A DNA stretch of 64,000 nucleotides from Bilabrum cf. latius (taxonomy: Eukaryota). Below the pieces are notes generated by a model. That model had not been told where the DNA came from, made no database searches, and was given only the letters and a program-made list of their open reading frames with translations. The stretch is from positions 248,001 to 312,000 of the forward strand of contig OZ237768.1 of NCBI GenBank assembly GCA_965178125.1, given 5' to 3'. This document shows, one piece after another, positions 1 through 64,000 of this stretch; position 1 is the first letter of the stretch, and every line of letters begins with the position of its first letter. Both the position numbers and the translations under genes were made by a program.

Positions 1-1811
1 GTGCGCACCTCCACTGGCAGGTGCAACAGCGGCAACTGATCCAGACCTGGAGTGCCCTGCCTGCTGGGCATAGCGCTGTGGCTTCACCGCTGTGGCTGCA
101 GTCCACTTCGTCGATGGCCTCCGAGTCATCAATGTGGCCTCCTCGCCGCCTAGAGCACCTACCCTTTGCTGTGGGGCAATATCGTCACTCGATTTTTCCT
201 AGGGACCTGCGATGGTCAGCGGTGCAGCGCCGTTTGCTGGCCTGACAGCTGGGCATGATCTCGAGTGCCGCGATGCCTCCGGCCCCATGCGCAATGCACC
301 TTGGTGCACGGCCGAGCCCTCCAACTCGGCGAACCCTGACAGCTTGCTCTCACTGCGGCTGCCCTTCGCGTGCAGATCGGCCTACTGGTTCGAGTAGCTG
401 CTGCCAGCAGTTGCGGTTGCAACGAGGCCACAGCCCGCCAGGCCAGGGTCATCCCTGCGGTTCGCACTGCACGCATACCTGCAGCGCCGTCCATTGCTGA
501 CCAATTTCTTGAAGTGGAACATATCACTAAACATTGCACTGGGCAGTCGCACGGCCGGGACAGGTCCCATCGACGCCAATGAAAAACGACTTGAATTCTT
601 CGATACAGCGGACCTTGGCATGCTCGGACTGTGCGGAGGTGGGCCACCCTCGCTGCCAGCTTGTTCGATATTAGAAGCACTCATCCGTGCAGACACGGCG
701 CCCACACTATTTGCATCGCCTGAAATTGACCCATGATGCTCGTCTGTCTCTGCTGCTGCCGGTGCAAGCGGAGGCTTGCCGATATGGCCTTTGAGAGGTT
801 GTGAAGTCGATCGCTTGGGGGCAGTCAAATCCTTCCTGTACCAGCTGAGCCTAGCCATGGCTCTCTCGTTGATTTCCTTTCCCTGGTCTACGCTCCATGA
901 CTTCTTCAGGCATGACTTGAGCACTGGATGCTCGCCGCTTGTGATTCGCAGGGGTGATGCTCGGCTGATGTTTGCGAGACCGGCCGCCGGCGAGGCAGCT
1001 GGACTAACCGAACCGCTGTCCAAGGCAACAGAGCGCAGTGAAATGCGGTCCGAGCTATCGCTGTGTTCATTATCAGCATCAAAACCACCGACCACGCGCC
1101 TTTCTATAATGTATGACTCGGTAGGCAGCTTGATGCAGCGCATAAGTCGGGCCTCAGCCTCTCGGTCGATCGATGCTGGGGACGGCACGCCTGTGCTCTA
1201 CGTCCAGAGGCGCAGCTTCCGAGGGACCACCATCCCAGGCACATCTGCACGAGCAGCCATGCACCGTATTCCATCGGCGGGACCCAACATGTCCTTGGCG
1301 CACGGTGCTCCTTCTGCAAATATCGTACGGAGCGCGCGAAACCATGCCTGCACAGCGCAGGCCTCATCGCGACCGGTCGCAAAGAACGGATTCTATCGGT
1401 CGCTCTTATACGCAGCTATCATCCAGACGGTTACAGCGCACTCCGTTTCAGCCACGTGGACATTTCCGGAGGCCCGGCGTCTCTCCTTGACGCCATCAGC
1501 TGAACGCGAACAAGCAGCAGTTGATGATGCTTTCAGCGCAGCACCTGCCGCCTGATCATTCGCTGAAGCACTTAAAGGCTACGAGAATGTACTATTATTG
1601 TTTGGAGGCGCTTCCGGAGGCCTCCCATCGCTATATCTTTCGTGGATCTGCACAAGTCGGTGGGAACAGTCGGGCAGATTGGCCAATTCCACATCTAATC
1701 GTTGTGTTGCTACCACTAAACCACACTTAATTTGATATGCGGGTATTTATCTTTGTTTACTTGCGCCGGAAAACTCACTGAGGCTGTTGAACTAGAAACT
1801 CCGCACCCCAT
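1..1811 (-). CDS. Unknown protein with N-terminal myristoylation/palmitoylation motif (MGCGVSS...); 3' end lies outside the window
   Basis: Exon 1 at 1811-1779 encodes MGCGVSSSTAS. A GTGAG...TGCAG intron spans 1778-1648 (phase 0). Exon 2 runs 1647 to <1 and is open except for in-frame TAG (1579, 1393, 1198, 382, 199), with no TAA or TGA. It includes track ORF 382..1188. Confidence 0.75.
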
Positions 1812-2139
1812 TGCTGTGGCGCGAGCAGATTAGATTTGGCAGACAGATCGTGTCGGGATCTGTGTCACAGTGGGTTCACGCCACCCAATGCCACTACAAT
1901 TGGCTGGCCAATAGCTTCAAGAATCCTGATGAGATTGGCTCGTGCCCAAGACCTGTCCCTGCAGGCGCTGTGCCTTTCGAATGGGTACGCGGAGTCTCCG
2001 AAGGGTTCACGAAGGTTCATGCACGAAGTAAGTTCACTTGAGTTCACTTCACAACTTAAACTTCACCTCACTTCGACCATTCACAGTGTTCCGGCACAGT
2101 GTGGAGTCCACTGAACCGAAAAGACCAGGCAGGCAGCGC

Positions 2140-3765
2140 TCACCCCCTGACGAAGTGGCAAAGGATCCCCGACCTCTCGGCGAGCCGGAACTTGGTCGGC
2201 TCAAGCCTCCCCACAACGGGGTCCTTGCTCCTGTCCCCCAGCACGTGCCTGACCCCCTCTTCCGTCCACAGAGGCAGCAGCGCATTTGTGTCTCCAATCA
2301 CACCCTTGCCCTCGCCCTTCAGCTCCTGCATCTTGGCCCTCAACGCCTCTGAGCTGGAGGCAGGGAGGGCCGTGGAGGGTACGAAGGGCGCATCCTTCGG
2401 GAAAATATTGTACCCTGTGTCACCCGGGGGGATTCCTCTCCCGAAATAGTGCTCGCTCCACCTCCTCTCAGTATCTCTCCCGCAGTTGAGAACAAACACG
2501 TGCGAGCCGGCAGGAGAAGCCGCGAAGGAGGCGGTGGCGATGCTCTGCATCCTGCCGTGATCCGAATCTGCGTACGCTGGCGGGCCTCGCACCATGACTA
2601 TATCGTATCCCGGGTAATCTCCGCCGCTGCCAGCGGAGAAACCACCGTTGCCGGGCTGCTCCAAGTCCTTGGCCCTCTGCAGAATACTCTGGATCTTGAG
2701 CTTCTGGTCGCCCATCCTCCCGTTCAACTTGTCCCTTTTGAGCTGTGTCCAATAGCTCACGGTCACGGGGCGGCACACGGCAGGCGTCTCGGGCGACAGG
2801 GGCGCGTCCGCGGGACTGCAGCCAAACTTCCTGAGGGTGTCTCCCTCGTCACAGGGAGCCTGCGACCTGCACGCCACGTCGATGATGCCACCTCGGTTGG
2901 CGCGAGCGACCACGCCCAGCTCCGCAGTGGCCCCAAAGTACAGAATCCTGAGGGGTTTGCCCTGTCTCTGCGGCGGGGCCTCCAAGCCCAGGGCCTCCAG
3001 CCGAGAGGGGGCGGACAGGGCCCTTGCCAGCTCCTCATCGGAGACGCCTGCCCGCCGCAGCCTGAGGGCCTGTATGGTGCGCAGCAACACCGCGAGCGCA
3101 GAGTAGTCCGCGATGGTCGTCTTGTCTCTATATGCGAGAGTTAGGTCTGCCAGGGCCTGAGTGTCCCAAGGCGACGGGTCCACGGCGCCGGAGACCGAGG
3201 CCGATTCGCTCGTGCTCTCGCTCCGAGGTGGCGTGATAGGATTCTATGGTGCTTGCTACTACTGTTTAGCTTCATATTCCTGTGCTTTGGGGGCCTTACT
3301 CTTCTTCTTCTTAGTCTTAAGCTTCTTTTCGCCGTTGGTCCGCTGCGTTGCCCCAGGTTTCCTACCTATGCCACCTCGCGCGCTTTCACTAGATCGAGCC
3401 ACGATCCGATCTGCAGGCGCCAGATCATGAAAATATTCTACAGGTACACTCGGGCTATCGAGTTCGATCCCCCTGAGCGAAGTTCCAGCGGTCGCAGGGA
3501 CAGGCTTTGGCGCAGACCGAACAGGATCGATATCGCGCGCATCCTGGAGCGTTTCCTGGTTGTGATCGCCACTTTGAAGTCCCCCGTCGGTTCTAGCATC
3601 GTTTTCCTGAGAATGGAACTCAGTCTGCGGTTTCTGCGACATCAGCACGAACTCGAGCGGTCCAATCACAAGGATGACTACAGCACTCGCTATCAACAGG
3701 GTAGTCTGCAGCCAACTTGTTGATCTCTGCTTGCCATACTTCCTATCATCGTCGTCTTTTTTCAT
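2140..3765 (-). CDS. Type II membrane protein with C-terminal DUF579 / IRX15-GXM-like polysaccharide O-methyltransferase-like domain (~541 aa)
   Basis: Track ORFs 3259..4158 and 2140..3183 share a frame and are separated only by TAGs (3259, 3256, 3244). There is an N-terminal TM segment (TTLLIASAVVILVIGPLEFVLM). Motifs LRILYFG, YDIVMVRGPPAY..GRMQSI and HVFVLNCGRDTERRWSEHYF resemble DUF579. Stop is TGA at 2142-2140. The start is uncertain: the frame is open upstream, with an alternative ATG at 4071. Confidence 0.7.
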
Positions 3766-4229
3766 GCCGCTGATGTGATATGGAAGGGCACCATGTTCAG
3801 TGGCGGTTGTAACTATCAATACAAGCACACAAACGGACGCGAAACTCAACCTGTCATGCGGCTTTGAACATGGAGTCCTTATTTGACGCTGTGTAGACGA
3901 TATGTGGGGCGGGATCGGAGGCGTGCACTTTGAGAGGGCGAACCTGCCGGCATGAATTGAGAGCAGCTCGGGTGTCTCACGGCACCGGTAGCCATCGGCT
4001 GGACTAGATCGCAGTGGCAGTGGCATTATAGCAGCCGGTTGATACTCTTTCCCATATATGCTAGTAGGCATTGAACGAGCATCGAGGTATGGTCCTAAAT
4101 TGGTCTTTGAGCCCGCCTCAGGCAAGTGAGGTTGCACAGCAGCTCGCTGATTCCTCACTTAAGCATTTATAGAACCGATCGTAGTGGTTAGGAAAAGAGT
4201 AGTGGATAAATAATGCTTCTGTAGGCTTA

Positions 4230-7200
4230 ATGTCGCTGATTATTGGGGATTCAAGCTAGGGGCGCTAGTGGGCGGCAAGCTTCTGCGCAGCAACTGGGCT
4301 CACCGTCAGCAGCACAAGGGAGCAGCGCGTGACCGCAGCAGGAGTGGGAAGTCTTCCGAAATGGATCGAACAGCTCGCGTTGCAGAGCACCCCTGAAGCG
4401 CTGAGATCTGCTTGCTCACTCGCTCTCTCGTTTGCATCGATCTGCCAGCTCCTGGTGGTGGCAGCTGCTGGAAGTGAAACAGTTCGAGCCGCATTTGCTC
4501 CCGAGGAGAGGCGACCGATGGATGAAACAAGACGGACCGACAGAGAAGAGAGCATGCGCGTGGAGCTGTTCTCCGTGCCTATCAGCCGACGCAAGGCCCC
4601 GTCTCTATCGGACTCAGGGGCACAGCCACCGCCGGCACCGGTACCGGCAGCAGCAGGTGCAAGTGGAAGTGCAAGTGCGGGGACTTGCCGCGATTTGCTA
4701 CACCGCAGGGCCGCCGATGCGTGCCGCTGCCTCGCAGCTCGGAAGGCGAGGACCTTGGTTGGCCTGCAGGCAGACCGCGTGGCTGCACTCGTGGCCAATG
4801 CAGACGAGCTGGGCAGGGACTCCAGCGAGGTACAGGCTAGGGCAAGGGCGGCCTTGGGCGCCACAGCCTTTGGTATCGGAGGCAGTGTTCTAAATGATGC
4901 CGACAGCAATGGTGCGCGAGTTCGTGCCGACGGCTCCGCTGTCTGCGGCGAAGGCAATCAGGAGCATGGCTGCGCGGCTGCGTGGTGGGAGTGCGTGCTG
5001 GCAGGCGCCGCTTGCCACGGATAGCTCTATGCAGATGAACTAGTGGACGAAGATGAAGGTCAATGTGACGGTGAATATGAAGGCCAATTTGAGCGCTCGT
5101 GTACTACTGGCGCAAGCAAGCTGGGCCAGGCCTCCATGGCAGACAACCCTTCAACGGTGGAGGCTGGCTCTGGCTCTCTTGACGACTCAATACGCGGGGA
5201 TGGGATTGCCAACAGTCTGTCCGTTCGCGCCAATGTCTGCCAGGCTGCCACCATTATTTGCTTGGACGTTCTGGCGAATGCGCTGGTGAGTTCAGCCCGC
5301 CGAGGGTAGCCCCCGTCGTCTGGTCAGGAGAGGCAGTCGCAGCACGATGGCTCGATGCTAGCAGCGGAGCAAAAAATGGCCGGCGGCTTGTCGTCCTCTT
5401 CGTCGTCCTCCAGCTCAATCGATGAAATTGAGGCTCGTGCGGTTGCACTAAGGCGGCTGAAGCTGAAGCAGCAGCGTAGGAAGCTGGCAGGGCTGATTGG
5501 CGCATCTAGTGGGTAGGATGGATCGGTCAGATCGTCCCCAGCACCTGCAGCATCAGCAGTGGCTGCAGGTGCACCTCGATCTACTTCAGGGGGCGAGGCA
5601 GGCGCCCTCGTCCAAGAAAAGTCGGAAAGCTTGGCGAACCATGCCCCCCCTTCTCTCTCTGACCAAGGGGAGGGTCGAGCTGATTCCAGCATAGCCTCAC
5701 CGATTGGGACGCTCCAAGCCGCAGCACCTGGTGCGGCCAAAGTATAGCAGTAGAAATGCACAAGCCCGATCACCGACTCAGATCCGCGCACTTCCGTGCA
5801 GTATGGCCTAGATTCAATGGAGACCTCTTTGCAGGAATCAATAGCCGAGACTCAGAGTGCCGCCATCCGTGGCATGCTCGGATGTACTGAAGCACGGACC
5901 GTCGTGGCAAAGCCCATCTCTCTGCTGGCATGGTTGGCGGTTCATCTAGCGGGGGCTCATCAACCAAACACGGAAGACGGTGATTCCTCGCATGCACAGG
6001 CAAGCGCTGATCTGGCTAGTATCGCAGATTCCTCAGGGCTTGGGCTTGGGCTTGGGCTGGGCCCCGCAGTCAGCCCAGAGTGCGTTCGTCAAGCGGAGAG
6101 CAGACTTTCCGGCGCTGGTCAATCACCACGCCGATCAACGAGGCGGGCAATGGGTCACTTGTCTATGGCTCAGACTCGTCTCGAGAGACTCGGTCAATGT
6201 GTTGCGTCATCCTTCCTTTTGCTGGCTTCTTGCTGTGATGGCCACGGTCAGCACAATGGCCATGATCCAGGCGCTGGCATGTCAGCTCCAAGTGCCGCCG
6301 TCGACCACAGGGGGCTTGATGATCACTCTCGCGCCCATCTCTCCAAGGATCGTTCGAGCATCCTCACTTAGATCTCTAGATTTGCCTCGTTTTCGCGCGC
6401 CTACTCTGACTGGATGCGGCATACCAGAGAGTGCGGGGTGCTGGCAAAGCAGCGCACCAAGACGGTGGTCAGAGCCGAGCTTCACGCGAGAGAGATAGCT
6501 GAGAAAGCCAGGCAAAAAGCCATGAAACAGGCTGTGGACCAGGCAGAGTTTGACCTCAAGCACGGCAGTGGCAAGGGGGTCGTGTCTACCTCCGAACAAG
6601 GCAGCGGCACCACTGTCGCGCCGTGGCGAGACCTCAGAGATCAGGCTGCGTCCGTTGGATAGAAGAAGCAGGAGTTCTCAGCGCAAGTTGCGACAGAAGT
6701 GGCGCTGGAACTGGCAGTCGCAGAGGTTTTTCGATTCTCTTCTGCGTGCCTGCTGAAGGCCTGCCTGCGGTGGTCCAAGGGTGCGGTGCAGGCAGAGCCG
6801 CGGCCTCGCGGGGGTCTCTCAAGCAGCGGCGTGCACGCCGGGAAACGAGGTACAAGCACCATCGAAATGATATAGGGGGCATCGGGCGAAGATATTCTTG
6901 GAGATGCATTGAATTGCGCTGCTATGGCTCCTGCAGCGGAGTTTGTCCCCCCTGCAATGAGCCTGGTGCGCCTCGCGACAACAGCAATCGCCGCAAGTCG
7001 AAGGGACCTGCACGCCGCATGTGCCCGCTGCTTGGGGCTGCTAGCGAGACAGGTGCATGGCACTGCAGTTGCTCGACTCACCGAGGGATGGTACGACCGC
7101 GGTTTCCCTGGACTGGAGCTATCCAAGGCATCGTCTGCTGGGGAGGAAGAGTCCCTCGCACCGTCCAACCACTCAGCGATGGAGGCAGGGTGCACGCGAC

Positions 7201-9770
7201 CGCTAGCCGAATCGGTCCCAACAGCCTCGGTGCACGTGCTCAGGCGACCCAGACCCTGTGTAGATGTCGCGATTCATTGCATAGGAGTGATGGGTTCTCC
7301 TTTTCGCGAGGACGCGGCAGCCGCAGTCGTCAATAGGGTGTTGCTTGCCTGCACCGGCTCCGCTTTCATGGGCCACGATGGCCGCATAACCCGGTTGTTC
7401 TAGATTGCAACAGGCGAGCATGCAGTTGCAACCGGCAGTGCGAAGGACAGCAGATCTGGCGCCAGCACGGCAAGCGTGCTGTCCTTCGCAGCCGACGGTG
7501 ATGCCCACATCTAGAGCCCAGGGCATTCCCTAGAAGCCTTGTCTGCTCTCATTTGTGGTCTCATCAGAACGTCTGGGTCGAGCGTATGCCATGCACCCGA
7601 AGTGCATTCAGAGAGCCAGGGCTCTAAGAAGAACGCATCAGGGGATTAGGAACTAGACACGGTCAGTCTCGCCATGGGACTGCAGTGCGGCCTAGACGCA
7701 TCGATGGCAGACTCCATCGGTGGACTGGCAACTGGCCTGTGGCGACTCCCGCCCGCTGGGTCATCAACCGCGGTGCTTAGCCCGCCTCGTGCCGTGGCCC
7801 TGTCCCCGCCTCGTAGCGGAGCAGCAGTTCTCATGGGATCAGCGAATGGGCGGTCCCAGTCCCACCAGAGCCAGAGGGACCCACGGGGCCGCGATGTGTC
7901 GGTTCGAAGCGCGTTGGTGCTGGCTTCGCTGTCATGCGCGGTATTGGAAGCCACTGTGGTAGTCGTCTCTCCCGGGTGTGTTGGGCTGCGATCCGATCCA
8001 GAGGGGCTGGAAGCAGGCTCACGTGCAGGCGGGGCCTCCGTTCAACCGCCCATGAAGCGAAGGAGACTTGGCGCCCCGTCAAATGCCGAGCTAGACCAAC
8101 AAGCGGGAAGAGCTGGCCGCGGCCGCGGTCGGGGCAGAGGTAGGGGTAGGGGAAGGGGCAGAGGCCGTGGCAAGGGCCAAGTGCGCTCTAGCGCCTCAAC
8201 TCCCACGCCATCAGCATTGAACGGCTCTACTCGCGTGGTATCTGCCGAATCCATCTCTGAGCTGGCCACGCCCACCCAGCTGCTCCAGCTTGGTCTCGGG
8301 CCGATCACGGTGTATCAGCTGCTGGACCTGGGTTCATAGGCTTGCCAGATGATGAAGAATGTTCTAGAATAGACGGCTGGCAGAAGCCGCGGCTCACCGA
8401 GTACCGTGGACCAGGAACCAGCTGCAGCTGCAAGCCGCCGTGCCCCTACCACAGCTGGTCTGGATGGAAGCGCGATCCGTATTTGTTCTCACCTCGTGAG
8501 GTGGGCGCTGTGGCAGGCGCAATCGTGGCTGCAGCCCATGGAGTCGTCTCTGGCCGTGCCGTGGCGCCGCGGCCTGGACGAAGGTTCTCTGAGAACCCTT
8601 CGCAGGCGTGCCGCTCGTTGCAAAGAATCGGCAAAGCAGCTGCACCAGGCGCTGTGCGAATACACCGGTGTTCGGGCGAGGATGTCGCTGCCGGAGGTAT
8701 GCATGCTTCAGAGAGTGCTGCGTCTCCTCGAAACTGACGTGGGCAAGTGGCTGCAGGCATCGCCAGAAGTCGACATGTATGGCGCGATGGTAGGCGCTGG
8801 CAGTGGAGGGCGCCATGGTAGCTTCAACTCTGACTCCCGGAATGAACGGCTGGGCGATGCCGGCTCCCGGGTAGTTGGCCGGCAGCTGGCGATGGCACGA
8901 GTGGCGCAGGCCATGGTAGATGAAGGATCAGAATCGATACCATCGCAGTCGGGAGGCGACGATGACACTGACCAAGCGGATGAGGATGATGAGGATGGTC
9001 ACGAGGATGAATGCTATCGTGGCGGGGGTGGGAGCGAGGACGATGGATCCATGTCTGAATCTGGGTCAGACTCAGGCTCAGATGGTATGGCCGCTGGATC
9101 TGTGAGAAATGAGGCTGGTATCGGCTCTGCCCTGAATGAACGCGGCATAGTGATGCATAACGGCAGCGATTCGTAGATCCGGATGACCGGTGCAAAAGGA
9201 GCTGGTGACTCTGGATCGCAGCATCACGGCCTGCTTGCCGCTTCGCTTGGCGGGCACAATCCAGGACCCACCCTATTTGGCAGCGAGCATGGCCACAGCC
9301 AGAGTGCATCCCCCGGTGCCCCCACCATGGGGGTGCCGGGGCTAGGCATGCAGCCTCAGCCTCAGCCTCAGCCTTAGCCTCAGCACCAGCACCAGCACAG
9401 CTGGTAGGGAGCCGGGTATGCCGGGCTGATGCATGGGCTCGTCCCCATGCCATCGATTCCCGCTGCGTCACCCGCGCCGGATAGTGCTGGAGGGATGCGC
9501 CTCGGGCAGGCTGTGATGGTGGCACAGCACGTGCACAGTCACGTGCACAGCCACTATCATGCAGGGAGCAGCTCCAGCTCGATAGGACCTGACTACCCGC
9601 GCCACGTTGGGGATGCAGCCCCCGGGAGCTTTGGCCGAGAGAGCATTGCGATGGGTGCTGGAGCAACTGGCAGTGCTGCGGGTGCCGCCCAGCAAGTTGT
9701 CGATATGGACGGGTTGCTGGCAGCTGCAGAGGCCCAGGGGTTGTTGTCTAGTGACAGTGATAGCGACTGA
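4230..9770 (+). CDS. Large (1846 aa) intronless low-complexity protein with RG dipeptide tract, acidic tract and QP/QH repeats; function unknown
   Basis: Track ORFs starting at 4329, 5043, 5559, 5796, 6414, 6909, 7674, 8406, 9183 and 9429 are all in one frame. Every intervening stop is TAG. ATG at 4230, TGA at 9768-9770. Confidence 0.8.
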
Positions 9771-9880
9771 GCAATCCATTTAGAAGGCTGCAATCACTAT
9801 CCTTCACTTTGTCTTGGATCTGCAAGTGCAGCGCACTGTCCTGATGTCATGTTCAGTCGCAATCACTTGGCTCCCAAATA

Positions 9881-10828
9881 ATGAATCGATTTGCATCCAA
9901 TCTGCTGAGAAAATCCGTGCGATACTTTTCTGCGGCTCCGCGGGCCGGGCCAGCACACGCTCTGGCAAATAGTTGCATCCTCGTCACTGGAGCTGGGAGC
10001 GGGATCGGCCGGGCAATTGTTGATCTAGCTTACAACTCTGGAGCACGCGTTGTTGCAACAGATCGCGACAAAGGATTACTCACTAAACTTAGCCGAGATT
10101 TAGAACCATCGACACCGGGAGAAAGTCAGCTGACCACAATATCGGGAGATGTTGCGAGTTCGCAGGATCGCTAGGCGATGATTGACGAAGCCTTGCAATT
10201 CGGGAATAGGCTGGATGGGCTGGTCAATTGTGCCGGAGTAGACTTTGGAAAGCCTTTCTTAGATACTAGCATGGAGGACTTCGACCGGGTAATCGACGTC
10301 GATCTAAGGGCAGTATTCGCCCTCACTCAGCTTGCAGCCAAAGTCATGGTAAAGTAGAGACCTAGGGAGCACCCAATTAATGACTCCCTGGTCATAAAGC
10401 AGCTCCCTTCCATCAAAGGTTCTATCGTGAACATATCATCTGTGCACTCGGTCGCTACCCTCCCAGGCGTGGCGCCCTACGCCGCTGCCAAAGCCGGTGT
10501 CGTCGGTATGACGAGGTCTATTGCGAACGAGCTGGCTCCCCTGGGCGTGCGGGTCAACACAGTGTCGCCCGGCCTCGTAGCGACAAAGATATGGGACGAC
10601 GTGCGCGCCGCGGCTCCCTCCAGGCTGGCAGCCCAGGAGCACTGGGCTCGGAACATACCACAAGGTGCGCCCAACACACCCCTCGAGATCGCGCAGGCGG
10701 TTTGCTTCCTCCTGTCACCCATGGCCTCTGCGTTTCAGGGAGCGAACATTGTTGTGGATGGTGGCATGACGTCTTAGCTCGTATCGCAGCCGCCTTACAA
10801 GCCGAAGCCACACGGCGCTGGGTCGTGA
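9881..10828 (+). CDS. Classical short-chain dehydrogenase/reductase (FabG-like), probable mitochondrial presequence (315 aa)
   Basis: Motifs TGAGSGIG, LVNCAG, SIVNISS, YAAAK, RVNTVSPG and VVDGG lie in one frame interrupted only by TAG at 10172, 10355 and 10775. Stop is TGA at 10826-10828. The N-terminus is Arg-rich (MNRFASNLLRKSVRYFS). Confidence 0.93.
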
Positions 10829-15561: not shown

Positions 15562-15805
15562 GGTCTTCAATTTGATTGCAACCACATCTCTCAGCGCTTT
15601 TGGCCGGAGTCCTATTGGGGACGTGTAGACTACAAAATTGGCTGTCGAATATTCTGGGCGTGGATGATGAGCATGGTGTGCAACTGCAGCTCATCATCTC
15701 CGGGGCCATTTTGACGCAACAACTGGACCGAGACAAGACAATTCTTCAGGTATTATTTTTCCTGGAACTCATACGGGCATCTTGACCTCTGCGATACCAC
15801 TTGCA

Positions 15806-17808: not shown

Positions 17809-18049
17809 TGCCTGCGGGCGCGATGCAGAGATTAATGCAGTCTTTGGTGATGATGCAATCCGGGATGTGTATTGGCCACAGGCCCTGGCTAGATCCAGAC
17901 TGTGCCATCTGGCTAGATCCAGATTTGCGTAGTCTGCCGTAGTGGATATCAGAAGACTACACCATTAAGCTTAGAAAGCTAATACCCTTGCGACTTATAA
18001 CTATAACTTATAAACAAGCATGCATCGATATAGTTCAGATCATCGTGGG

Positions 18050-19256: not shown

Positions 19257-19301
<45 letters not shown>

Positions 19302-20434: not shown

Positions 20435-20469
20435 AGTTTATGTCTTTGGAGGCGCGAGTTTGGCGCCGG

Positions 20470-52100: not shown

Positions 52101-55100
52101 GCATCGCACTGGGCGAAATTGCCACATCGCACCGCAAAGGGATCACTGCACCTTGAGCCCCTGACACGATCTGTGCGGTAGACTCACTGCTGGCAATGCT
52201 GACGTGCACCGCTGGGATTGCGTCCACAAGTACCAAGTCTTCACAAGCGAGATCGGCACCAATGAAAAACTAAGCCCAAATAGATCTGCTGTGTATGGCA
52301 AGTGGGATGTCGCATAGGTACCGAGGGCCGTTCCACGTTCCATGGCACTCCAGTCCGTTCATCAATGCGAGCACATCAGGAACCTGATCATTCAACAACA
52401 CTTCGAACTCGAAGGCAACACTGCTATTTGACCGAGTCAATGGCTCAATCTGCTTGCATACGGGTCTATCCAATACGTGAAGAGTATCAACAGCGGTATT
52501 GCGACCTAGTACGGTGACCCAGAGTTCATATGTACCAGGTGGCACGCGTTCGAAGTTGACAGAATCTCCGAAGATCCTGGCGGCAACTGCCTCAGCCTTG
52601 CCATTCAGGTACAGCTACGCCGCCTCCAACTACCATTCGCTATCGTCTTCGCTAACTCTGTCGTCGGAAACCTAGACCCAAAAACTCGGGGAGTGCACCA
52701 CATGTGTTGACAGCGACAGACCCAACAGTTGGAGCGTGGACCCATCGCCATATTTGCTCGCCTTAGCTGATGCTGATTCCTTGCTGCGACCTAATGGAAT
52801 GCTGACAGAAACACCACTCTATCCAAACAGCCGTATCGAAGATGCTGACTCGTGGGCTAGGTCAGCCTGAAATGGGCAAACTAGCGTCTTTTCGGAGAGT
52901 TGAGCCAGCTGCCACTGGCTCTGCCCCACCATGCACCTCCATGGCCCCGCCCCCGCTACATCATCAGTGCGATCATCGAATACAATGATGGCATCGGATG
53001 CTTCTTGACCTGCTGCAGCTAGAGACTGTACGACGTAAGCGTTCTGCAGGATTGCACCAGGAATGTCAACGAGCAGAGTCACAGAAGCATTCAAATTTCC
53101 GGTTCTGTCTGGGCTACATTCCAGTTGTATCGCCATGGATCCTTGTAGCAACAACTAGCCAAAGTCACAAACGAAAATTTCGGGTGATAGAATCTCCGCT
53201 GCCACTTGCATCATCTCTGCGATGCACGCGCACCGGAACAGGCTAGTTGAGGAAGACAGCAGCACCGCAACTCCACGAGGATCAGGGCCGTCCCACAGTA
53301 TGCGGCTGCCAAGAATATCAATCGGAGCACTCGAATTGGAGCTATTGAAGTCTATCTCCTAACCACCCTCGTGCACTATTGTCTCATCTGCCTAAAGAGA
53401 CCATGCATTGCTGGACTAGGCAGAGCCTGTGTGCCCCGCCTTGGAGATACGAAGCCAGGCACTGTCAAACTCCTCGCCATGCAGCGAAAATGAGGCCTTA
53501 ACAACAGAGATACCGTCTTTTCTGTCTATCGCCCCGGCCACAAGCATAGCGCATGCAAGTGGATCGATCGAACAAGTCAAAGTGCTAATATTATGGAATG
53601 CGCAGCGCATTCCCAACCCCGCTACGTGTGCTGTAAGGTCTTGCTATGCCTAGGGGTCAGCACCGGCACTGCCGCCCAAATGAACATGTACTGCTGGGAA
53701 CGAATCTTGATGCTCACTGCAATTCAAATCGAGTGTCGTTGGCTGCACATGTCGAATGTGTGGCACATCGATGACACGAGACTGGGTGAGCTTTACCGGC
53801 GCAGTTATTGCTACACCACCACTGTGCGCCGCAACTGTAACGTTTGCGCTATAGATGGGCTCGCTTGAATTCCGTGAAACTGGGAACCGACACAAGAGAG
53901 AATCAGTGCTTCCAGCCATGGCAGGCCTGTTTTGGCCCGACTCATCCGTGCACACCAGCCTGAACCCAGCCTCTGCAAGTCTTCGGAGTGTCGTCTCGTT
54001 GCTCTCTCTTCCAAAAGACACAGTTTCATGGTGCTTGCTACGAGAATATGAAGCAGAGAGTTCCGTATGAGCAGCTATCCGCAGTATCTGCACAGCACCT
54101 GCTACCACTCCATCAAAAAGCAAGGTAGCCGCGCTAAGCTCCGTCGACACGGTGCCCTGGGTACATGAGCAATGAATGGAGCCCTCCCGCAAGCGGTCGC
54201 AATCGCACTCGACTTCTTGGGAGATGTTCACGCGAACCCGCACCCCATATCGCACGGCTTGCTCGATACAACGGGCTGTAGGGGATAATATGAAAGCATC
54301 ATGAGAGTCAGTCCGAGTACGAAGACCAGTAATAGGAGCCTGGAAAGGCAGCTGGAAAGCGAACACATCAGCCGAGGAAAACACGCTGGAGAGGCCTGGC
54401 CTGCCTCGTGCAGTCACCCCGCATTCGCCATGGGAGAGGCTCCACTCGGCAACGCGAGCGAGAGTATTCCTCTGCTGGCCGGTCAGCATCGACATGGCCC
54501 ACTAGCGATTATAGTCCAATCGGTTAGACGAGGTGACCGTCGAATTCTTCAGCAGCAAGTATCGGGGGAGGCTCTAGTCAAAGTGGATGAGTCGTACAGC
54601 TGCCGAATGGTGCAACACCGGTACCGTCGCATCGATGACTTCGACCGAGCCAGCTTGGTCCAAGTGAAATCGCTGGATAGCCCGGCAAGATGTAGTATTC
54701 GCCGGGAATTGCGTGCACACCCACCTTGCACTATCGGCCATTCTCGGCCTAGCAGCTGCTTGTGGCAACACATGCAGTGCCGCTGGCGTGCTCTGGATCA
54801 CAGCGGCAGAGGCAGGATCCATAGCAAGATCAATCTGCACATAGCAGCTCTCTCCAACACAGCCCCCCTCGGTTCCACCAATAACTCCGCTGGAGTATAC
54901 CGGAACTAAAATCGGAGCCGAGACTCGGCTGGCAAGCTCGCCAGTCGTGCGCCCGCCAAGCTCAACAGAAACCTCAGCTGTGAGTGGGAACGGGCCTTCG
55001 CTGTGCATGGATTGCACAACAAGCTAAACCATGCATATGAGTCGATTGTGCATGACCTCCAGCACGGGTGGAGCAGATCCAGTCAGTGACGACTGGCAAC

Positions 55101-57102
55101 GAATGGCGTCATCCCTGGCTGCTGCCTCGATCGCGCGCTCTGCCCGGGTAGAAGACACGATCCACTCTGCCGTGAGGCTGCCCACTCCATCCTTGATAAA
55201 GGTTGGATTCGCTGTTTCGTTGAGAGGAATTGGACGAGCCATTGCATTGAGCGAGCTTGCCGGAATGACCGCGTGCTGCATCGCAGATTCCAGCCGCTCA
55301 AGAACATCGACCCTCGAGCCAACGTCTCTCCGGTCACACTGCACAACTATGCTCGCCATTAGCATCGGTTCGGTGATGACCACCTCAGACACACATGTCA
55401 CAGATCGATTTGAATCTCGGCCCACCCCGCATCCAGACACAGCCGCGACCGGCGAGTAGTCATCTGCAGGCCACGACACGAGGCACAGGTTCTGTCGCGA
55501 CTGGGCTGATGGGCCTGTAGATGCAGTCATATCCACCTGCCATCTTCCCATTCGCGATGTCACTAGCGTAGATCGTACCGCATACAGGGGAACAATTTGT
55601 GGCAAGACCCTAACAGCTGCAACAGACCCGTTGGGACTCGCGCCTTGGCCAGTGCGATCGGCCAGAGACAGGGCAGCCGCAGCGCAATCAACAACGTGCA
55701 CATCAAACGAAGCCACTGTACGCAATTGTCTAGCGGTTATGGGTGGTAAACTGCACGAAGCGTGCTCTGTTGCGTTCTCTACTCGAAGCCTAGTTGCTCC
55801 ACGTGACAGGTGCTCTGGCGTGGATCCGTTCGATTGGACGAACAGGCAGCACAAACCACCACCTGATTCTAGAGGTCCGCTAATTGCATGACCAAGGACC
55901 TCAGTCGATAATGAGATTTGGCCGTACGCCCCCCGCTCTGTAGCAATGAATGTGAACGTGCTCGGGTCAGCGAGCGCGGGTATGTCGCAGGCACCGCGCA
56001 GCTCCAGCTCAGCCTGGCTTCCCGCCTGATCAATGAGCTCCAGCCGTTCTCCTGCTAGCGAAGCCCGGGCAGACAAGTGACAAGTTATCCTCCTGTAAGT
56101 GGAATCCACAAAGGGCTTTGTAGAATGAATGACCTTTCCTGCTCGATCCAGAACGAAGCAGCCAAGTTCATTCGCAGCAGGAATAGATAGTGTCTCTTCA
56201 GCAGTGACCACGATACTTCCTGGCAATCCAGCGGTGCATACGCTTCTATCCCGGTCGAGCTAAATCCCACCAATTGGGTTGTACAGAGACACGTGCAGCG
56301 CCGAGGTCCGGGTCCCATCGGGGGCTTGGACCCACAGGGTAGCCGACGTGCCGTTGCAGCTGCGGGCTAGGATTTCGCACTCCCCTGCTCCCTCGGACAG
56401 CAAGCGTACAGGAACCTGTACACGATCTGTGCTGGACGAGCACCTATCCTACTAGAACACGCAATACAACTCGAGCGGACCCTAGCTTCGAGAAAGCCGC
56501 TGCGGCAGGCCACGAAGCCTCACGGTGCCAACCGCATTTCGCGGCAGGAAGAGGCTGCCGGCCGCATCAACAGTCGATTGTAGGGAGGCGGAGGACTGGG
56601 TGCCAATGCCAGTGGTTCGTAGCACTACTTCCTTGTACCCAGGGTTGAATACGGCCAGGTTCAATCTCTTTGGCGCTCGATCGCCATCGTGTCCCCAATT
56701 CTGCTAGGCCCGCGCCTTTCGCAGAGCACGCTGCACATCCCTGGTAGAACCAGTTTTCCGAAGAAGCTGGTTCCCCGGCAATTGTATGTGACCACTATCA
56801 GATAGTGATAAACCTGCGCTGGACTGTGAGCTAGCTTCGCTGCCCTCAAATCGAGGTCCAGTCGATAGCACTGCCTCAACTGCCTCCAAATAGTCCACAT
56901 CAGAAATCGTCAACCGCCCCAGGTCAAACCTGCGTTAATAAAGTAAATTCCACTAGCAGCGTAGCGTATGATGCAGTATTGGATGATGCGAGGGAAGGGA
57001 GCACGGCATGTTGCTCGCTCCTCACTGCGTTGGGCCGGAAGCGTGAGCCAGCATAATCATAGCACTAGCCAGCACGCACGCTGACATATCACTGTACTTC
57101 AT
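22147..57102 (-). CDS. Giant (~11,619 aa) cell-surface protein: signal peptide, long Ig-like/IPT-TIG array, Cys-rich GCC2/GCC3-like repeats, multipass TM domain, CxxC/CxxC motif, C-terminal coiled coil
   Basis: Exon 1 at 57102-57026 encodes MKYSDMSACVLASAMIMLAHASGPT. A GTGAG...GCAG intron spans 57025-56930. Exon 2 runs 56929-22147. More than 50 minus-strand track ORFs share one frame (low coordinate = 1 mod 3) and all end at TAG except the last, which ends at TGA 22149-22147. The gaps I scanned by hand contained only TAG. Confidence 0.9.
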
Positions 57103-57173: not shown

Positions 57174-57193
57174 CGTTGCGATAGCAACGTTGC
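57174..57193. promoter_or_regulatory. Palindromic X-box-like element in the 173-bp divergent intergenic region
   Basis: GTTGCGATAGCAAC at 57175-57188 (CGTTGC-N4-GCAACG) overlaps the perfect palindrome GCAACGTTGC at 57184-57193. It sits midway between the ATGs at 57102 (-) and 57276 (+). Confidence 0.4.
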
Positions 57194-57275
57194 GTGCACA
57201 TTCGGCATACAAATTGCGATTTACCGAATTGCGACCAAACCACGCCACAGCAGCAGGAAAAGACAAGATTGACGG

Positions 57276-58818
57276 ATGTCTTCCTTTATTGAATCTGAAA
57301 CAGAACGAGTTGTAACTGTTTTAGATCTATGCGTCGCCCAGCTCCGGGATATTGCAATCGTTCCGTTGACAAAGCAGCTCCCGAAGTTCATAGTATCGGG
57401 TGCAGCGCCAACGGACAGCGGATCGACCGGAGACCAGGATGATTCGCCTCATTACTCCCCGCTGGAAACCGCCCTGCTTAAACAGGCCGAGTCCGAAATA
57501 ACGTTTGCCAAGAGCTTTGGCTAGGGGAAAGGCGGGCTGGCCCTGCCAGAATTGTTCGCAACCACTCGGAGGCTGTCTCGCGACATAGCAGCTGCGAGAC
57601 AGCTGAGAGAGGTAGGTGAAATTGGATCACAATCTGTAGATGGCAAGGTTCTTTCCATGATTGAGCGAAGCTCCGACCGCCGACGAGCGCGGGGTGCCGG
57701 TGCATCGACTGCGGCAGGTTCTGGCATGGTGCCCCCTGGCACAGCCCGTTCAACTGCGACTCATGGTACATCACGCCCATTTACGGCTGCTAGCACTACT
57801 TCAAAGGGGACTGGTGTGACTGGTGGTGGTGGTGGCGGTTTGCTTCCATTGGAAGGCTTGGCTGAAGCACTATCGCAGCTCCGAGTGAGATCGCAAAATG
57901 ATGATTCCGTCGAGACCACGCTACTGCAAGACTTGCGAAGAAGCTGCGTGCAAATTGTGACAGTAAATCGCCTTACATACCTTTGGTTTGTCTCTAAGAA
58001 GACCAGCTGCGCATTTATGAGACTGCCGCCCATTGTGGAACTCAACTCTTCCTATTCAATCGCAGGACGCGATGCATGCCCGGTTCATGACATCGGTGGA
58101 GCAGAAAGCGCTCCTCGAAGATTTCGAGCGGGGGCTGGACGACAAAATAAGGCAGGCAGAGGCGCACGAGCAGCTGCTCGTGGAGGAGCTCCGGAGGCAG
58201 CGTCAGAAGCGCGAGGCAGACCGCACCAAGCAGGACGACGAGGAAGCGAGGTTTAGGGCAGAGTACGACGACGCTGACACGAGGTCTAGGCAGGCCGCAC
58301 AGGCGCTTGCTTCGAGCGAGGCCGAGCAGCACCGCTCGCTGCGATCGTCACACGAGTCTCACTCGGAAGCGATCGACAGGGACCTGCAGCAGACCGAGCA
58401 AGCAGTTGCTCAGAAGCAGGCCGGCAATCTCGCCGCGGCGGAGGGCCTTCGAAAGAAACGCTTCCAGGAGACAGTGCGTATCACTGAGATTCTGGGCGAG
58501 TACGATGCTCGCATGGCCGAGATGCAGGCCGAGGACGACTTGCTCGCTGCCGAGAACCGCAGGATAGAGAGACAGATTGCGGCGCTGAGGCAGCACTTCG
58601 ATGTCGAGGACGCGAACGAAGGGGAGACCAAGCATGAGGACGGAACGGTTGGGGCTGCCATCCGACAGGAGTTCGACGATCGCGAGAGACAGGAGCTGAA
58701 TGCCTCCCTGGTGATCGCCGAGTGGGCGAGGAGGAGGCTGGACCAAAAAGCGGCCGAGCTAGCTGCCAAGAAGGGCAAGCGCAAGGGGAAGAAGGGCAAG
58801 AAGAAGAAGAAAAAGTGA
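57276..58818 (+). CDS. DRC10: Dynein regulatory complex subunit DRC10/IQCD-like coiled-coil protein (~479 aa)
   Basis: N-terminus ETERVVTVLDLCVAQL; coiled coil LRKKRFQETVRITEILGEYDARMAEMQ; degenerate IQ-like segment; Lys-rich tail KKGKRKGKKGKKKKKK. TAG at 57522 is read through. A phase-0 intron at ~57963-58065 (alternative donor 57948) joins the frames. Stop is TGA at 58816-58818. The related DRC9/IQCG is not excluded. Confidence 0.7.
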
Positions 58819-58852
58819 TGCATCTTGGCAATCAAACAGTCTAGTTGGTCTG

Positions 58853-59312: not shown

Positions 59313-59537
59313 TCTTAATGTGTGTTGCAAACTGAGTGGATGTTATTCTATACATATTATATATGATGCATGTAGCATCTTGCTTGATGTACTTTGCATC
59401 AGTCGTCACCATCAAGTTGCATGTATTCGGCTGATTGGTGACATGTGCTGACGACGGCATCCAATCCCTGGCTGCTGCGCGTTCACAGGATTGCACTGAT
59501 CACGGAGGCAAAGTAGAAGTGGTTATGGCGAACCAAT

Positions 59538-61865
59538 TCACTTTCTCTTCGGCTTGTGCGATTTTCGCCCCGCCTTCGACTTGGACGAGCTCTTGCCGCT
59601 GCCCAGCTTGAGCATTGCCTGCCAGTTGCCACTCCCGAGCGCCACGGCAGCTTTTCGATGCCCCTGCTTCCGTGACTTCTTTCCTTTTTTGCTCTTCATA
59701 TCCTAACTGGACCCGTCAGAAGCTCCGGCGCTTCCTTGATCCGACTCTCGCCTGCTCCGTTTCCCGCCCGGCGCACCCTCGGCGGGACCAGGGGCACCCC
59801 GCTTGCCCCCAATCGTGCCGCCTGCAGACTCCTCTTTCTGTGAATCCTCCCTTTCCTTTGCTCGCTCTAGGGCAGCCCAATGCCTCTCGAGCGCCTTCCG
59901 CTCTTTCTTCTGCTTGATCGTCTCGTGCCGGGGAGCGAAGGCCCGCTCGATGGCTGCCTGCAGCGTGCCGCCGGGAGCACCCGCCACACTACCCGCGGCA
60001 CCTGTGCCACCCAGATTCCATTTATCCCGGGCGAGTGCGTTCTGCAGGAAGAACACGGAGGTATCACACGTCGACACCCTGTACCTCTGCCTCCTCCACT
60101 GTTGCGACCCCTCAGTGTACCCGTGCTGGGACTGCTTGAGCACGATGCTCTGCCTGAGGAACTTGGAGGCTTGGAGCGCCCCCCACCCGGGAGAATCGTC
60201 CCACCGCGGGATGATGATGCAGAAGCCCAGGGGCACCCTTGCCCCCCGGAGGCACCCCTCCATCTTCTCGGACATGGCCCGCATCACGCCCTCCACGAAC
60301 GGCGGGTTGGCCTCCAGCGACAGCCCCCTTCCCGGGGGCAGCCGCTCCAAATCCAGGTCAAAGAAACTGCCAAGGGAACCGAACCACACGTCCGTGTCGG
60401 GAAAGGCAGAGCAGAACGGCGCCCACCTGCAGTTGAGTGGGCTGGCGAAGCATTCAACGCACGCCCCTGCCCTGCTCCTGAGCACGTCAAACACTTCGCC
60501 GTGCGCCGCTGCTTGAAAGCCACCACCGCCGCCGGAGAGCGCCTCGTATCGTGCGAGCATAGCAAACAGTCTGGGCAGGAACAGCTCTGGCTGCGATGCG
60601 CCTGGACCTCTTGAGTACAGCACCCTGAGTTTCTGGTAGTGGGTCGGGTTGAGCCTCAGCTTGAGCACCGACTTGCCGGCCTTGCCACGCGAGACAAGCA
60701 GCTACGGCGGGCGGAGAGCTCGCTCTTTCTTGCCATCTTCGCCCTTACCTTCACCCTTGCCCTTGCCCTTGGTCCCGCCTAGTTCCCCTGCCGCAGAGCT
60801 GCTTCGAGACCTACCCCCCGCGCTGCCATCCTTCGTTGTTCCCTGCGCCTTTACCGCCGCATCCCATTGCTTCCACACAGCCGGGGGCACCTCTGGACCT
60901 GCGAGGCCATCCGAGCCAGCGAAAGAGTGGCTGGAGAGTGTGGTGCCTCCTGCTTTGGGGGAGCACCGGAGCACTTGCTCGGGCTCGTGCTCGCTCTCTT
61001 CAATCATCACACGGATACCGGCTTTGCTGGCGGCACGCGAAAGTACCGAGCCGTCGACGTGTGCAGCTGGGCCACCTGTTCGCCCAGCGCGTGCAGATGC
61101 GGATGATGAGGCAGAAGAAGAAGAAGAGGAGGTGATGGAGAGGCTGCTCCCCGCCGGCATGCTTGCGTTGGCCGCCGCGATCTCCCACGCATTCGCTTCT
61201 TCTGCTACTGATGGTGACGTTCCGGGCGAGGACGAAGCAGGCGCGGGAAACGGACGCTTGATTAACCCCACAGAGGAAGCATCGGCAGCCAGTGAGACGC
61301 CGTAGTCAGCAGCGCTCGCACACGTGGCTGCGGGGGCACCGGCCGACCTGCGAGATTCGCTGTACCACGCTCGAAGCGATGGACCGGCAGACCCTGGCGC
61401 GACTACTTCGGTGGGCAGTGCTGGCGGTGTGCGCCCGACGGAGCGAGCGGCTTGCTGCGTAGCTCGTGCGAGTGCCTGGGCCGCTGCTTCGGCCTTTTCA
61501 GCCGGCATACCTGCCTTCTTTGCGGCTTCCACTAATTTATCAAACGACGATATTCTCAGCGGAATCAGCGGATCTATCGGCTCCACAGCCTTTGCGACGC
61601 TCTCGATGCCGTCGGCTAGCTCGCTCTACTTGAGCAGCTACTCGAACTGCCACTGTTCAAACGCTGCAACTGGGACATCAAATCCCTTGCATAGACCATC
61701 GAAAAACTTGTGCCTCAGTGAGCGAAGTGCTAGGCACCTCCTGGACTCGACTGCAGGATCCACAACCAACGGCAACTGCTTGCCGACTGGATTTGTAGGC
61801 AAGACAGGCGCAATATCAAGGACATGTTTGGGGCCAGCGGCTTGTTCGTCCCAAATTGGTTCCAT
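59538..61865 (-). CDS. PCIF1: mRNA cap-adjacent (m6Am) adenine-N6 methyltransferase PCIF1/CAPAM (~775 aa)
   Basis: Motifs LARYEAL..GFQAA, ECFASPLNC, FCSAFPDTD.WFGSLGSFF and catalytic EANPPF; upstream helical-domain-like AFEQWQFE and DPLIP. Track ORFs 61638, 60702 and 59703 share a frame joined by TAGs. A Lys-rich tail ends at TGA 59540-59538. Confidence 0.9.
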
Positions 61866-62040
61866 TTGATCAGCTCCGCAAACAAATCTATGGAAATGAA
61901 ATGGTTTGAGGCAAAAAAGGCCCGTCATGGAGAACTCGGTTTCACGAACGTTCCATGCGATCTGCCGAGTGTACCACTCAGTGTCCACGTGCGGCTTTGG
62001 CAGCGCGCGAGGTGCTGTCTCCGTAACGAGCATGCATTAT

Positions 62041-64000
62041 TCACGGTCGGCACCCGTTCGTGTTGCCTTCCTCCACGACCTCCCAGTCCTGCGCATCCTT
62101 GGAGGAGAAATCGGTCAGCGACTGCCCCTGCGCCCCCTCCGAGCACATGGTGTTGCCGAGCAGCTTGTTGTGGACGGGGGTGCAGTACTTGTCGTCCAGC
62201 ACTCCGGAGAGGAAGGGGAATGATTCTCTCCACGCGGGCTTGCTCGCTTGCTCTGCGAGGGTCTGGTTGTCCTCCCCGTGGCAGCTCGACTTCTGCCAGC
62301 CGAGCCCTCGGTCATCAATGTGAATCGCGACCGCCTTGGTGCGATTGAGGGCGAAATAGTTGCCTTTCACTGTGGTATTGCGGCCACCGCCGATGAACAC
62401 GCCCTTGTTGCAATCGATAAACGTGTTGTTTTCGATCGTCCACCAAGACATCTCGCTGCGAAAGGGGGATAGGCGGGGGGGAGGAGAGGGGGGGTTGGAA
62501 TAGATGGGGAGAGGGGGGGGGCTAGTCGGGGGTCAATGACAGGGTCGGGGGTCTTCGACATCATACCATACCAGCAACCAGGATGAAAGCAAGGCAAAAT
62601 GTACATTGAGTGGAGTTCAACCTTGCGCCATTCGCACTACGACAAAATTGTACCGATCCATGACAAACAAAGGATGCAACCCCCCGTTGTCTCACTCGTC
62701 CAGGTAGATGGCCTGCACCGACGGATAGCCGAGGGCCACCGGCTCCGTGTTGTAGATCCTGCGGAACGTGTTACCTACAAGGCTCGAGTTGGGGTTAATG
62801 AACGCCTCGCCCTTCTATCCACAGGTGTAGAACGCGCCTGAGTCCGACACTTCCCAGCTTACTGCGAGGGTAGGAAGGCAAGCTAAAGGCACGGGATCTA
62901 GGAGAGGTTGTCCGTCGAGCAGCACTGGGCAAGCAGTTCGATGGTGCAGTAGTCAGCAACAGCACAACAACAGGCAGATTAACACACTTTGTAGGACCGA
63001 TGCCCGCCGTCCAATGAAGCTGCTCTCATGACCGAATGAAACAGCTGTCTCTCACGGTCTTCGATCAGGTTGCCCCGTACCACTGCGCTCACCCCAGGGA
63101 TTTCGTTCCCACCTCCCAGGATGCCCTGATGCGGCCCGTTGAACACATGGTTGTTCTCCAAAGTGACACCTACCCCGCCCCAGTGGATCCCAGGCATGTA
63201 GGTCCGCTTCCATCGGCCCATTTGGTGCGCGCTCGTGTTACGCACCACGATGCCAGACGGCGTCAGCGTGTCGAAGTCGGCTGCGGGCCCGGACACCGCC
63301 ACTGCGCTGCAGCCGACCCCGTACGCTTCCGATGAGTCCACGACGGTGCCCCGAGACCCCTCGATGGAGATTCCTTTGCGACCGTGCAGGGAGGCCACCA
63401 CGTTCTTCACACCGATGTTGGTGCAGTTGCCTTCCGTGCAGTTGACGCCGGATCCCATGGAGGACTCGAGCACGAGGCCATCGAACTGCACGTTGCTGGT
63501 GCCGGGACCCAGCTCAAACACATTCGCAGATACGCCAAAATATGCGCCATCGTTCATCGTGCGGCCGCTCACGCCCCGACGCCCGGCGAGCTTGGGAGCA
63601 GCTGCTCGCTGCTCCTCCGAGTTGCCGTCGAACCGCTCCAAATCGGACTGGGAGGGAGGGTAGAAGTACAGCGTGAGATCCGGGTCGGCTGTGTCGACGT
63701 ACCATTCCCCTGGGGCGTCGAGCTCCGACAGGAGGTTGATCCCGATGAAGCGAGCATTCTTTTTCCAGGCGGCCGGCCTCGTGCTGCTCGAGATGTTGAC
63801 GAGCGCTCCGCCGCTAGGAAGCGGCGAGATCGCGGAAATCTGCTCGTACTCGTCCGCCCAATCTACATGAACGTAGCCGTGGATCCAGGGGTCGTTTTCT
63901 TTTGCCCAGTTCAACGGACGGCTGTCGGTCGTGTTGAACCACGCAGACGTGCCGCCATCAGCGTGCGAGAACATCCAGGAGCCGTTCGCGGCAATGTTGG
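62041..64000 (-). CDS. Right-handed parallel beta-helix carbohydrate-active enzyme (GH141-like), 5'-partial
   Basis: Exons >64000-63056, 62861-62696 and 62455-62041 with GTGAG...GCAG introns. Motifs LLSELDAPGEWYVD, LYFYPP, RWKRTYMPGI, NGPHQGI, DSGAFYTCG*, AIYLDDEMS (spans an intron) and FIGGGRN. TAG at 62817-62815; stop is TGA at 62043-62041. Confidence 0.85.

Follow-up and report, generated by a model that had tools for sequence, protein, structure and literature searches.

UAG as a very probable glutamine codon in the nuclear genome of Bilabrum cf. latius, a eukaryote with stramenopile homologies

Reassignment of UAG alone to glutamine in nuclear genetic codes is recorded, in the accessible text of PMC11687900, for Iotanema spirale (Panek et al. 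2017, PMC5304391, as summarized there), a member of the Fornicata that has kept UAA as a stop codon, for Protocruzia tuzeti and for two lineages of phyllopharyngean ciliates. According to the same text, UAG is read as leucine in an uncultured rhizarian and in some phyllopharyngeans and as serine in Scotinosphaera, and one further uncultured ciliate also belongs to the nuclear codes that separate UAG from UAA (PMC11687900). Here, a stretch of 64,000 nucleotides from Bilabrum cf. latius (GenBank assembly GCA_965178125.1, contig OZ237768.1, positions 248,001 to 312,000 of the forward strand), hereafter called the window, was analyzed, and UAG was found to serve very probably as a sense codon for glutamine in this nuclear genome. 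The evidence is drawn from a giant single-exon gene on the minus strand of the window, from its neighboring genes, from transcript-derived contigs and from homologs of the encoded proteins.

Comparison with the described systems reveals both shared and distinct traits. As in Iotanema, the reassignment would concern UAG alone, with glutamine as its new meaning, UAA does not act as a sense codon, and the organism is a flagellate outside the ciliates. The differences are that Iotanema belongs to the Metamonada, whereas the present organism falls, by homology, into the Stramenopiles, and that the window has a G+C content of 53-60% and shows TGA at ten out of ten gene ends. Protocruzia tuzeti and the two phyllopharyngean lineages share the same codon table, with UAA not reassigned as far as the accessible text of PMC11687900 describes them, but they are ciliates, while the genes of the window have stramenopile homologs and conventional GT..AG introns of 88-246 nucleotides (nt). 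The rhizarian and Scotinosphaera resemble the window in that UAG has been uncoupled from UAA in a nuclear code outside the ciliates; they differ in the amino acid, as leucine and serine lie 37.6 and 27.1 nats behind glutamine when 13 TAG columns of the giant protein are evaluated. NCBI translation table 15 (the “Blepharisma” code, TAG = Q) is taken by us to be the matching formal label, and it is a label only, which says nothing about descent. The code as such is already known, and what appears to be new is that this lineage uses it.

Translated with the standard code, the window contains no stop-to-stop open reading frame (ORF) longer than 731 amino acids (aa). Reading TAG as sense raises this maximum to 11,595 aa, whereas under two control codes, in which either TAA or TGA is read as sense, the longest ORF stays at 731 aa. 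The gene revealed in this way consists of the following parts:

22147..56934, minus strand: giant single-exon ORF of 34,788 bases and 11,595 codons, with 127 TAG and 0 TAA
22043..22146, minus strand: 3' untranslated region of about 104 nt belonging to the giant gene, with a likely poly(A) site at 22043

The sole TGA of the giant ORF is its terminal codon (22147-22149), and the 127 in-frame TAGs thus stand against 0 TAA and 0 internal TGA, while the remaining frames of the window contain a few per cent of TAA and TGA together. A frame of this length that is free of TAA and internal TGA among others that carry them at such a frequency is explained neither by chance nor by decay. In the giant gene, UAG makes up approximately 1.1% of all codons and approximately 20% of the apparent glutamine codons, and all TAG-containing genes of the window are open when translated with TAG as Q. 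The original prediction had proposed that UAG is a sense codon in the window, as same-frame ORFs over about 35 kilobases were seen to be broken only by TAG. The ORF lengths, the control codes and the RNA-derived contigs described below are in agreement with this proposal, and the series of ORFs proved to be one frame that is open over all 34,788 bases. Two accompanying statements were too broad: most genes, rather than every gene, contain TAG, as a coiled-coil ORF (58021..58818) and the beta-helix exon 62979..63998 lack it, and the TAGs are not consistently placed between conserved motifs, as those of a PCIF1-like gene fall outside the PCIF1_WW domain and those of a sulfatase gene lie at both ends of the protein.

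The giant protein contains TIG/IPT and cysteine-rich Ephrin_rec_like repeats, has a membrane part with multiple passes at its C-terminal side and carries a tail of coiled coil; in Cafeteria, Cantina and oomycetes, its homologs measure 2,000-7,800 aa. The first ATG of the ORF is located at codon 462 (window position 55551) and is preceded by 461 open codons, an arrangement that is ambiguous between a translation start at this position and an upstream exon.

Six public sequencing runs from two studies contain the window sequence, and the contigs of four of these runs were compared with it over positions 14001-34000. For study P1, the contigs of the DNA runs X1 and X3 exhibit 0 differences over 21322-34000. 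In study P2 (X5 and X6), the contigs skip three stretches on the plus strand (16060-16167, 16224-16311 and 16895-17027) and two on the minus strand (19135-19380 and 19481-19622). Read in the direction of its gene, each of the five starts with GT and ends with AG, and the lengths range from 88 to 246 nt. X5 and X6 are not recorded as RNA; as their contigs skip introns that are kept in the DNA runs, they are deduced to derive from spliced RNA. The introns belong to two genes:

15723..17987, plus strand: sulfatase mRNA with exons 15723-16059, 16168-16223, 16312-16894 and 17028-17987
18023..21341, minus strand: transcript of an ankyrin-repeat gene with introns 19135-19380 and 19481-19622

A 34,188-nt contig of X5 covers 22043-34000 with 0 differences and 0 gaps and spans 34 in-frame TAGs. 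Both TAGs of the sulfatase gene, together with a single in-frame TAA, are likewise unchanged in the RNA-type contigs. At the level of contigs, UAG is therefore present in mature mRNA and neither edited nor spliced out; the original prediction had named TAG in mRNA as a check on its proposal, and the spliced X5 and X6 contigs retain the TAGs unchanged. Since introns are removed while TAGs are kept with 0 differences, assembly error, splicing-out and editing at the consensus level are excluded. The X5 contig further shows a loose end of eight T residues before position 22043, on the 3' side of the minus-strand giant gene, and the location of this T8 tail about 104 nt past the terminal TGA identifies a likely poly(A) site.

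The amino acid encoded by UAG was approached via homologous columns. A part of the giant protein comprising 1,200 aa (window 26038-29637) and 13 TAGs was searched against 1.84 billion representatives, which yielded 699 matches at E<=0.001. The best 150 of these 699 were aligned with an X at each TAG, and within this set the conserved TAG columns contain Q in 39 of 53, 33 of 63 and 23 of 55 proteins. Over the TAG columns, an empirical likelihood derived from the alignment behavior of the true residues of the same query ranks glutamine first and glutamate second (13.2 nats behind); lysine trails by 16.6, serine by 27.1 and leucine by 37.6 nats. As a control, sets of 13 positions were drawn at random for each of the true residues Q, E, K, L, Y, W, S and R, and the correct residue was recovered in 198-200 of 200 draws; the matrix having been trained on the same alignment, the control is a lenient one. 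An alignment of the PCIF1-like protein did not decide the amino acid, its four TAGs being located in poorly conserved parts. Pyrrolysine was dropped as a candidate, as the homologous columns indicate glutamine and the genes are eukaryotic; no further test was made for it.

Metagenomic relatives of the organism exist at 92% and at approximately 65-71% protein identity. Their public gene calls (e.g., P0141, P0150 and P0164; Logan/ENA contigs) are cut into short fragments at TAG, which is a consequence of the standard code having been used. Of seven ORF fragments that were called with the standard code in close relatives (66-92% identity), five end directly before a window Q, one before a window TAG and one before an I. 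With approximately 6% Q plus TAG in the query, the chance that at least six of seven ends coincide with Q or TAG is roughly 4e-7 (hand arithmetic). A metagenome contig from a separate sample, L001, contains one frame that is open over all 10,068 bases (3,356 codons; 41 TAG, 0 TAA, 0 TGA) and is 65% identical to the giant protein over 3,322 aligned residues. Opposite the 39 aligned TAGs of L001, the window has CAG 16 times, CAA six times, TAG four times and other codons 13 times, i.e., glutamine codons in 22 of 39 cases and a glutamate codon in only one, and UAG thus interchanges with CAG and CAA between relatives. While a true Q of the window faces Q or TAG of L001 in 63% of cases, a TAG of L001 faces Q or TAG of the window in 26 of 39 (67%), and the closeness of the two values shows TAG behaving like a glutamine codon. 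Most TAGs of L001 are found at other positions than those of the window. At least one environmental relative is consequently found to share the code. Conserved columns, likelihood, L001 pairings and fragment ends all match UAG with glutamine in homologs and allow high confidence that glutamine would be the amino acid inserted.

The two other stop codons behave differently. In the giant ORF, CAA and CAG occur in a ratio of 165:345, whereas the ratio of TAA to TAG is 0:127, and the absence of TAA beside 165 CAA indicates that TAA is not a glutamine codon. Neither the giant ORF (11,595 codons) nor the open frame of L001 (3,356 codons) contains a TAA. The restriction of the reassignment to UAG, a further element of the original prediction, is thereby upheld in the sense that TAA is not a general sense codon. 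UGA terminates every gene defined in the window (ten of ten: giant, PCIF1-like, short-chain dehydrogenase (SDR), sulfatase, beta-helix, ankyrin-repeat, the coiled-coil ORF and three further ORFs), and none of these ten ends uses TAA. In addition to the giant, sulfatase and ankyrin-repeat genes, the genes concerned are:

2140..4158, minus strand: 672-aa ORF that is open with TAG as sense (3 TAG) and ends at TGA
3813..9770, plus strand: TAG-sense ORF of 1,985 aa with 26 TAG, a low-complexity protein, ending at TGA
9845..10828, plus strand: SDR gene of 327 aa with 3 TAG (adh_short_C2, E 9.7e-56)
11020..15690, minus strand: 1,556-aa ORF that is open with TAG as sense (9 TAG) and ends at TGA, no Pfam match
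58021..58818, plus strand: coiled-coil ORF (“DRC10-like” in the original prediction) of 265 aa with 0 TAG, ending at TGA, no Pfam match
59538..62036, minus strand: PCIF1-like gene of 832 aa with 4 TAG (PCIF1_WW at residues 469-643, E 1.2e-51), ending at TGA
62041..63998, minus strand: gene of a beta-helix protein with several exons, leaving the window, its last exon ending with TGA at 62041-62043

Two TAGs close to gene ends deserve separate mention. The third TAG of the SDR gene occupies the position at which solved SDRs end (directly after DGGMTS) and is followed by 17 more codons and a TGA (10775-10828, plus strand). In the sulfatase gene, TAGs are located at 15854-15856 (residue 44) and 17800-17802 (residue 583), the second of them two codons upstream of the TGA stop at 17806-17808 on the plus strand. 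In both genes, the near-end TAG looks like an earlier stop codon past which translation now continues to a back-up TGA. The sulfatase, whose protein shows the Pfam domains Sulfatase and Sulfatase_C and has 1fsu as its best PDB match (E 9e-23), also contains the one exceptional TAA announced by the original prediction, which was located precisely:

16524..16526, plus strand: the only in-frame TAA in the window, located within exon 3 of the sulfatase

PDB alignments of exon 3 were uninformative, as the region around the TAA is variable at that distance, and closer homologs were therefore used, 12 of 14 of which have F in this column, with W and L occurring once each. As the TAA is placed at a conserved phenylalanine rather than a glutamine column, it provides no evidence for TAA as a sense codon. 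It is probably a nonsense mutation or the mark of a young pseudogene, or else a read-through site.

These observations suggest a model in which cytoplasmic ribosomes would read UAG as glutamine. By analogy with other eukaryotes in which UAG specifies glutamine, decoding may be carried out by a tRNA-Gln with a CUA anticodon, derived from the normal tRNA-Gln, while UAG recognition by the release factor eRF1 would be lost or weakened. UGA would end the genes, and UAA would not be used as sense. The model is built on DNA and RNA sequence, and the search for tRNAs covered the window and L001, where ARAGORN returned 0 tRNA genes and Rfam 0 matches at the gathering score. The gene for eRF1 does not lie in the window.

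With respect to the host lineage, the best match of the PCIF1-like protein is from Cafeteria roenbergensis (57% identity); next in order are metagenome proteins without a name, oomycetes (Phytophthora) and brown algae (Ectocarpus). For the giant protein, the homologs that bear a name belong to Cantina marsupialis, Cafeteria, Pythium and Thraustotheca. Thus, the nearest named homologs of both proteins are of stramenopile origin. In a quick PCIF1 tree, the window groups with Cafeteria on a long branch (SH-aLRT 92), and the same grouping was obtained for a region of the giant protein (SH-aLRT 89). By homology, the organism is thus assigned to the stramenopiles and is probably placed near bicosoecids such as Cafeteria. 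The original prediction had held that the organism does not look like a ciliate, which is borne out by these stramenopile homologs. Concerning the timing of the change, the nearest homologs outside of the TAG-using set, P0121 (2,415 aa), P0122 (3,705 aa) and P0123 (7,785 aa), are 41-51% identical and form long unbroken ORFs under the standard code. At approximately one TAG per 90 codons in an organism that uses TAG as sense, such unbroken frames would be very unlikely if TAG were a sense codon there. It is therefore suggested that the change predates the split from the lineage of L001 (approximately 65% protein identity) and probably postdates the splits from the lineages of P0121-P0123 and of Cafeteria.

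Several alternatives to UAG as a regular glutamine codon have to be considered, together with a number of observations that weigh against this interpretation. An ambiguous code has been described for Condylostoma and karyorelict ciliates, and UAG might similarly denote glutamine inside genes and still act as a stop near the 3' end of some mRNAs. The third SDR TAG at the end of the homologs and the sulfatase TAG two codons before TGA would fit stops that are still in use; yet a TGA is found shortly downstream in all ten gene models, and a recently lost stop accounts for the same pattern, so that ambiguity is considered unlikely. UAG might also encode a different amino acid, such as glutamate, lysine, leucine or tyrosine. 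The TAG column at position 762 contains E 30, D 19 and Q 12 times among the best 150 of 699 matches, one TAG column of the PCIF1 alignment is mostly E, and codes with UAG as leucine, serine or glutamate exist elsewhere, as given in the accessible text of PMC11687900. Furthermore, many TAG columns beyond the conserved Q and E/D ones are variable, the 92%-identical relative shows F at one TAG column and the relatives at 71-75% show R, R and K at three. In the reverse direction, the 27 aligned TAGs of the window face CAG five times, TAG four times and other codons 18 times in L001, i.e., Q or TAG in only nine of 27 cases. Against a different amino acid stand the likelihood, in which glutamate, lysine and leucine trail glutamine by the distances given above, the pairing of L001 TAGs with window glutamine codons (22 of 39, glutamate one of 39) and the fragments ending before Q, and such an assignment is rated very unlikely.

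A combined reassignment of UAA and UAG to glutamine, with UAA being rare through high G+C content, would accommodate the in-frame TAA, which belongs to an expressed sulfatase gene and is present both in DNA and in an RNA-type contig showing 0 differences, as well as the lack of TAA at all ten gene ends. Regarding these ends, TGA trinucleotides are fourfold more common than TAA in the G+C-rich window (970 vs. 262), so that disuse of TAA as a stop does not follow from finding TGA at ten ends. However, the CAA:CAG ratio of the giant ORF predicts approximately 60 TAA, where 0 were observed beside 127 TAG; L001 likewise has 0 TAA beside 41 TAG, and the sulfatase TAA falls on a conserved phenylalanine column. 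The combined reassignment is thus regarded as hardly credible. Finally, the TAGs might be untranslated, i.e., represent pseudogene mutations, CAG-to-TAG assembly errors or positions removed by editing or splicing. The sulfatase TAA does resemble a true nonsense mutation, and otherwise only the bare presence of stop codons speaks for this scenario. It is countered by 127 TAG vs. 0 TAA or TGA in 11,595 codons, by identical letters in the DNA contigs of one study and the RNA-type contigs of the other, where introns are out and TAGs stay, and by the same TAG pattern at mostly different positions in L001 from a separate sample. The agreement of DNA and RNA contigs refutes untranslated TAGs at the level of the consensus sequence, and their probability is considered negligible. 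The runs consist of contigs, which hide minority variants, and editing of a part of the transcripts or occasional termination at UAG may be concealed behind the consensus. In addition, the two single-gene trees behind the placement near Cafeteria have long branches and weak support.

Based on the interpretation of UAG as a glutamine codon, the position of this case among known codes was evaluated. A literature search, with most subscription journals and supplements outside its reach, revealed no report of a nuclear code change in stramenopiles. The cases recorded in the accessible text of PMC11687900 include no stramenopile; two of them, Protocruzia tuzeti and Scotinosphaera, are missing from the known examples given by the original prediction. 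In the accessible part of a stramenopile overview (PMC11412368), a match to code changes occurs only in the reference list, the accessible text of the Incisomonas genome paper (PMC12614181) does not mention the code, and no stramenopile nuclear code change is given in the accessible portions of PMC10120064 and PMC13768787. The chances that this is the first nuclear stop-codon reassignment in stramenopiles, and an unpublished one, are judged to be about even. We would put equal weight for and against the more detailed proposal that a clade related to bicosoecids, comprising the organism and its relatives at 92% and approximately 65-71% identity, reads UAG as glutamine as the first such case in stramenopiles, having acquired the change independently of Iotanema and the ciliates and after the split from Cafeteria, with UGA perhaps as the sole practical stop codon and UAA nearly abandoned. 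The independent and undescribed origin suggested by the original prediction is therefore plausible and unproven, its support being that no stramenopile case was found in the literature searched. The sequencing runs date from 2025, and the producers of the data may already know of the code.

As only few nuclear codes separate UAG from UAA, a further independent case would be useful. The present one concerns a G+C-rich, intron-bearing stramenopile for which genome and transcriptome data exist and whose environmental relatives are found on both sides of the change, and it would offer a natural comparison for the capture of UAG by tRNA-Gln while eRF1 keeps UGA. In practical terms, gene calls made with the standard code are shredded for the organism and its relatives, and annotation, completeness estimates and phylogenomics of the organism need to be carried out with TAG as Q.

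The remaining genes of the window add several details. The four TAGs of the PCIF1-like gene correspond to residues 133, 137, 445 and 778, all of which are outside of PCIF1_WW (residues 469-643). The ankyrin-repeat gene contains at least one in-frame TAG within an ankyrin repeat, and its last ORF (18050-19303) ends with TGA. The TAG-free beta-helix exon 62979..63998 comprises 339 aa. An X5 contig spans 14001-15620 and is situated inside the minus-strand ORF 11020..15690. Six-frame Pfam scans gave no match for 56935-59540 on both strands and for the plus strand of 1-3812, and the minus-strand ORFs of 1-4158 were covered by a separate Pfam scan of TAG-sense ORFs.

Some structural features of the window were also observed. 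In the 3' part of the giant gene, the RNA-type contigs of X5 and X6 exhibit loose ends leading into unlike sequence at 22640 and 23399 (minus strand), which could be alternative isoforms, a paralog or chimeric contigs. Upstream of the ankyrin-repeat gene, at approximately 20200-21350, the contig depth of the DNA runs increases from approximately 8-13 to 42-133 and contigs break with loose ends at 21247-21351. All sequence differences between runs are confined to this region, which resembles a repeat with multiple copies or a mobile element. At 19914-20031, a perfect tandem repeat of three 39-bp units is present, and one RNA-type contig is one unit pair shorter at this site; the corresponding 78-nt skip was ruled out as an intron by its GC..AA ends. 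A (GGCT)11 microsatellite is located at 19257-19301, and the DNA contigs break at this position.

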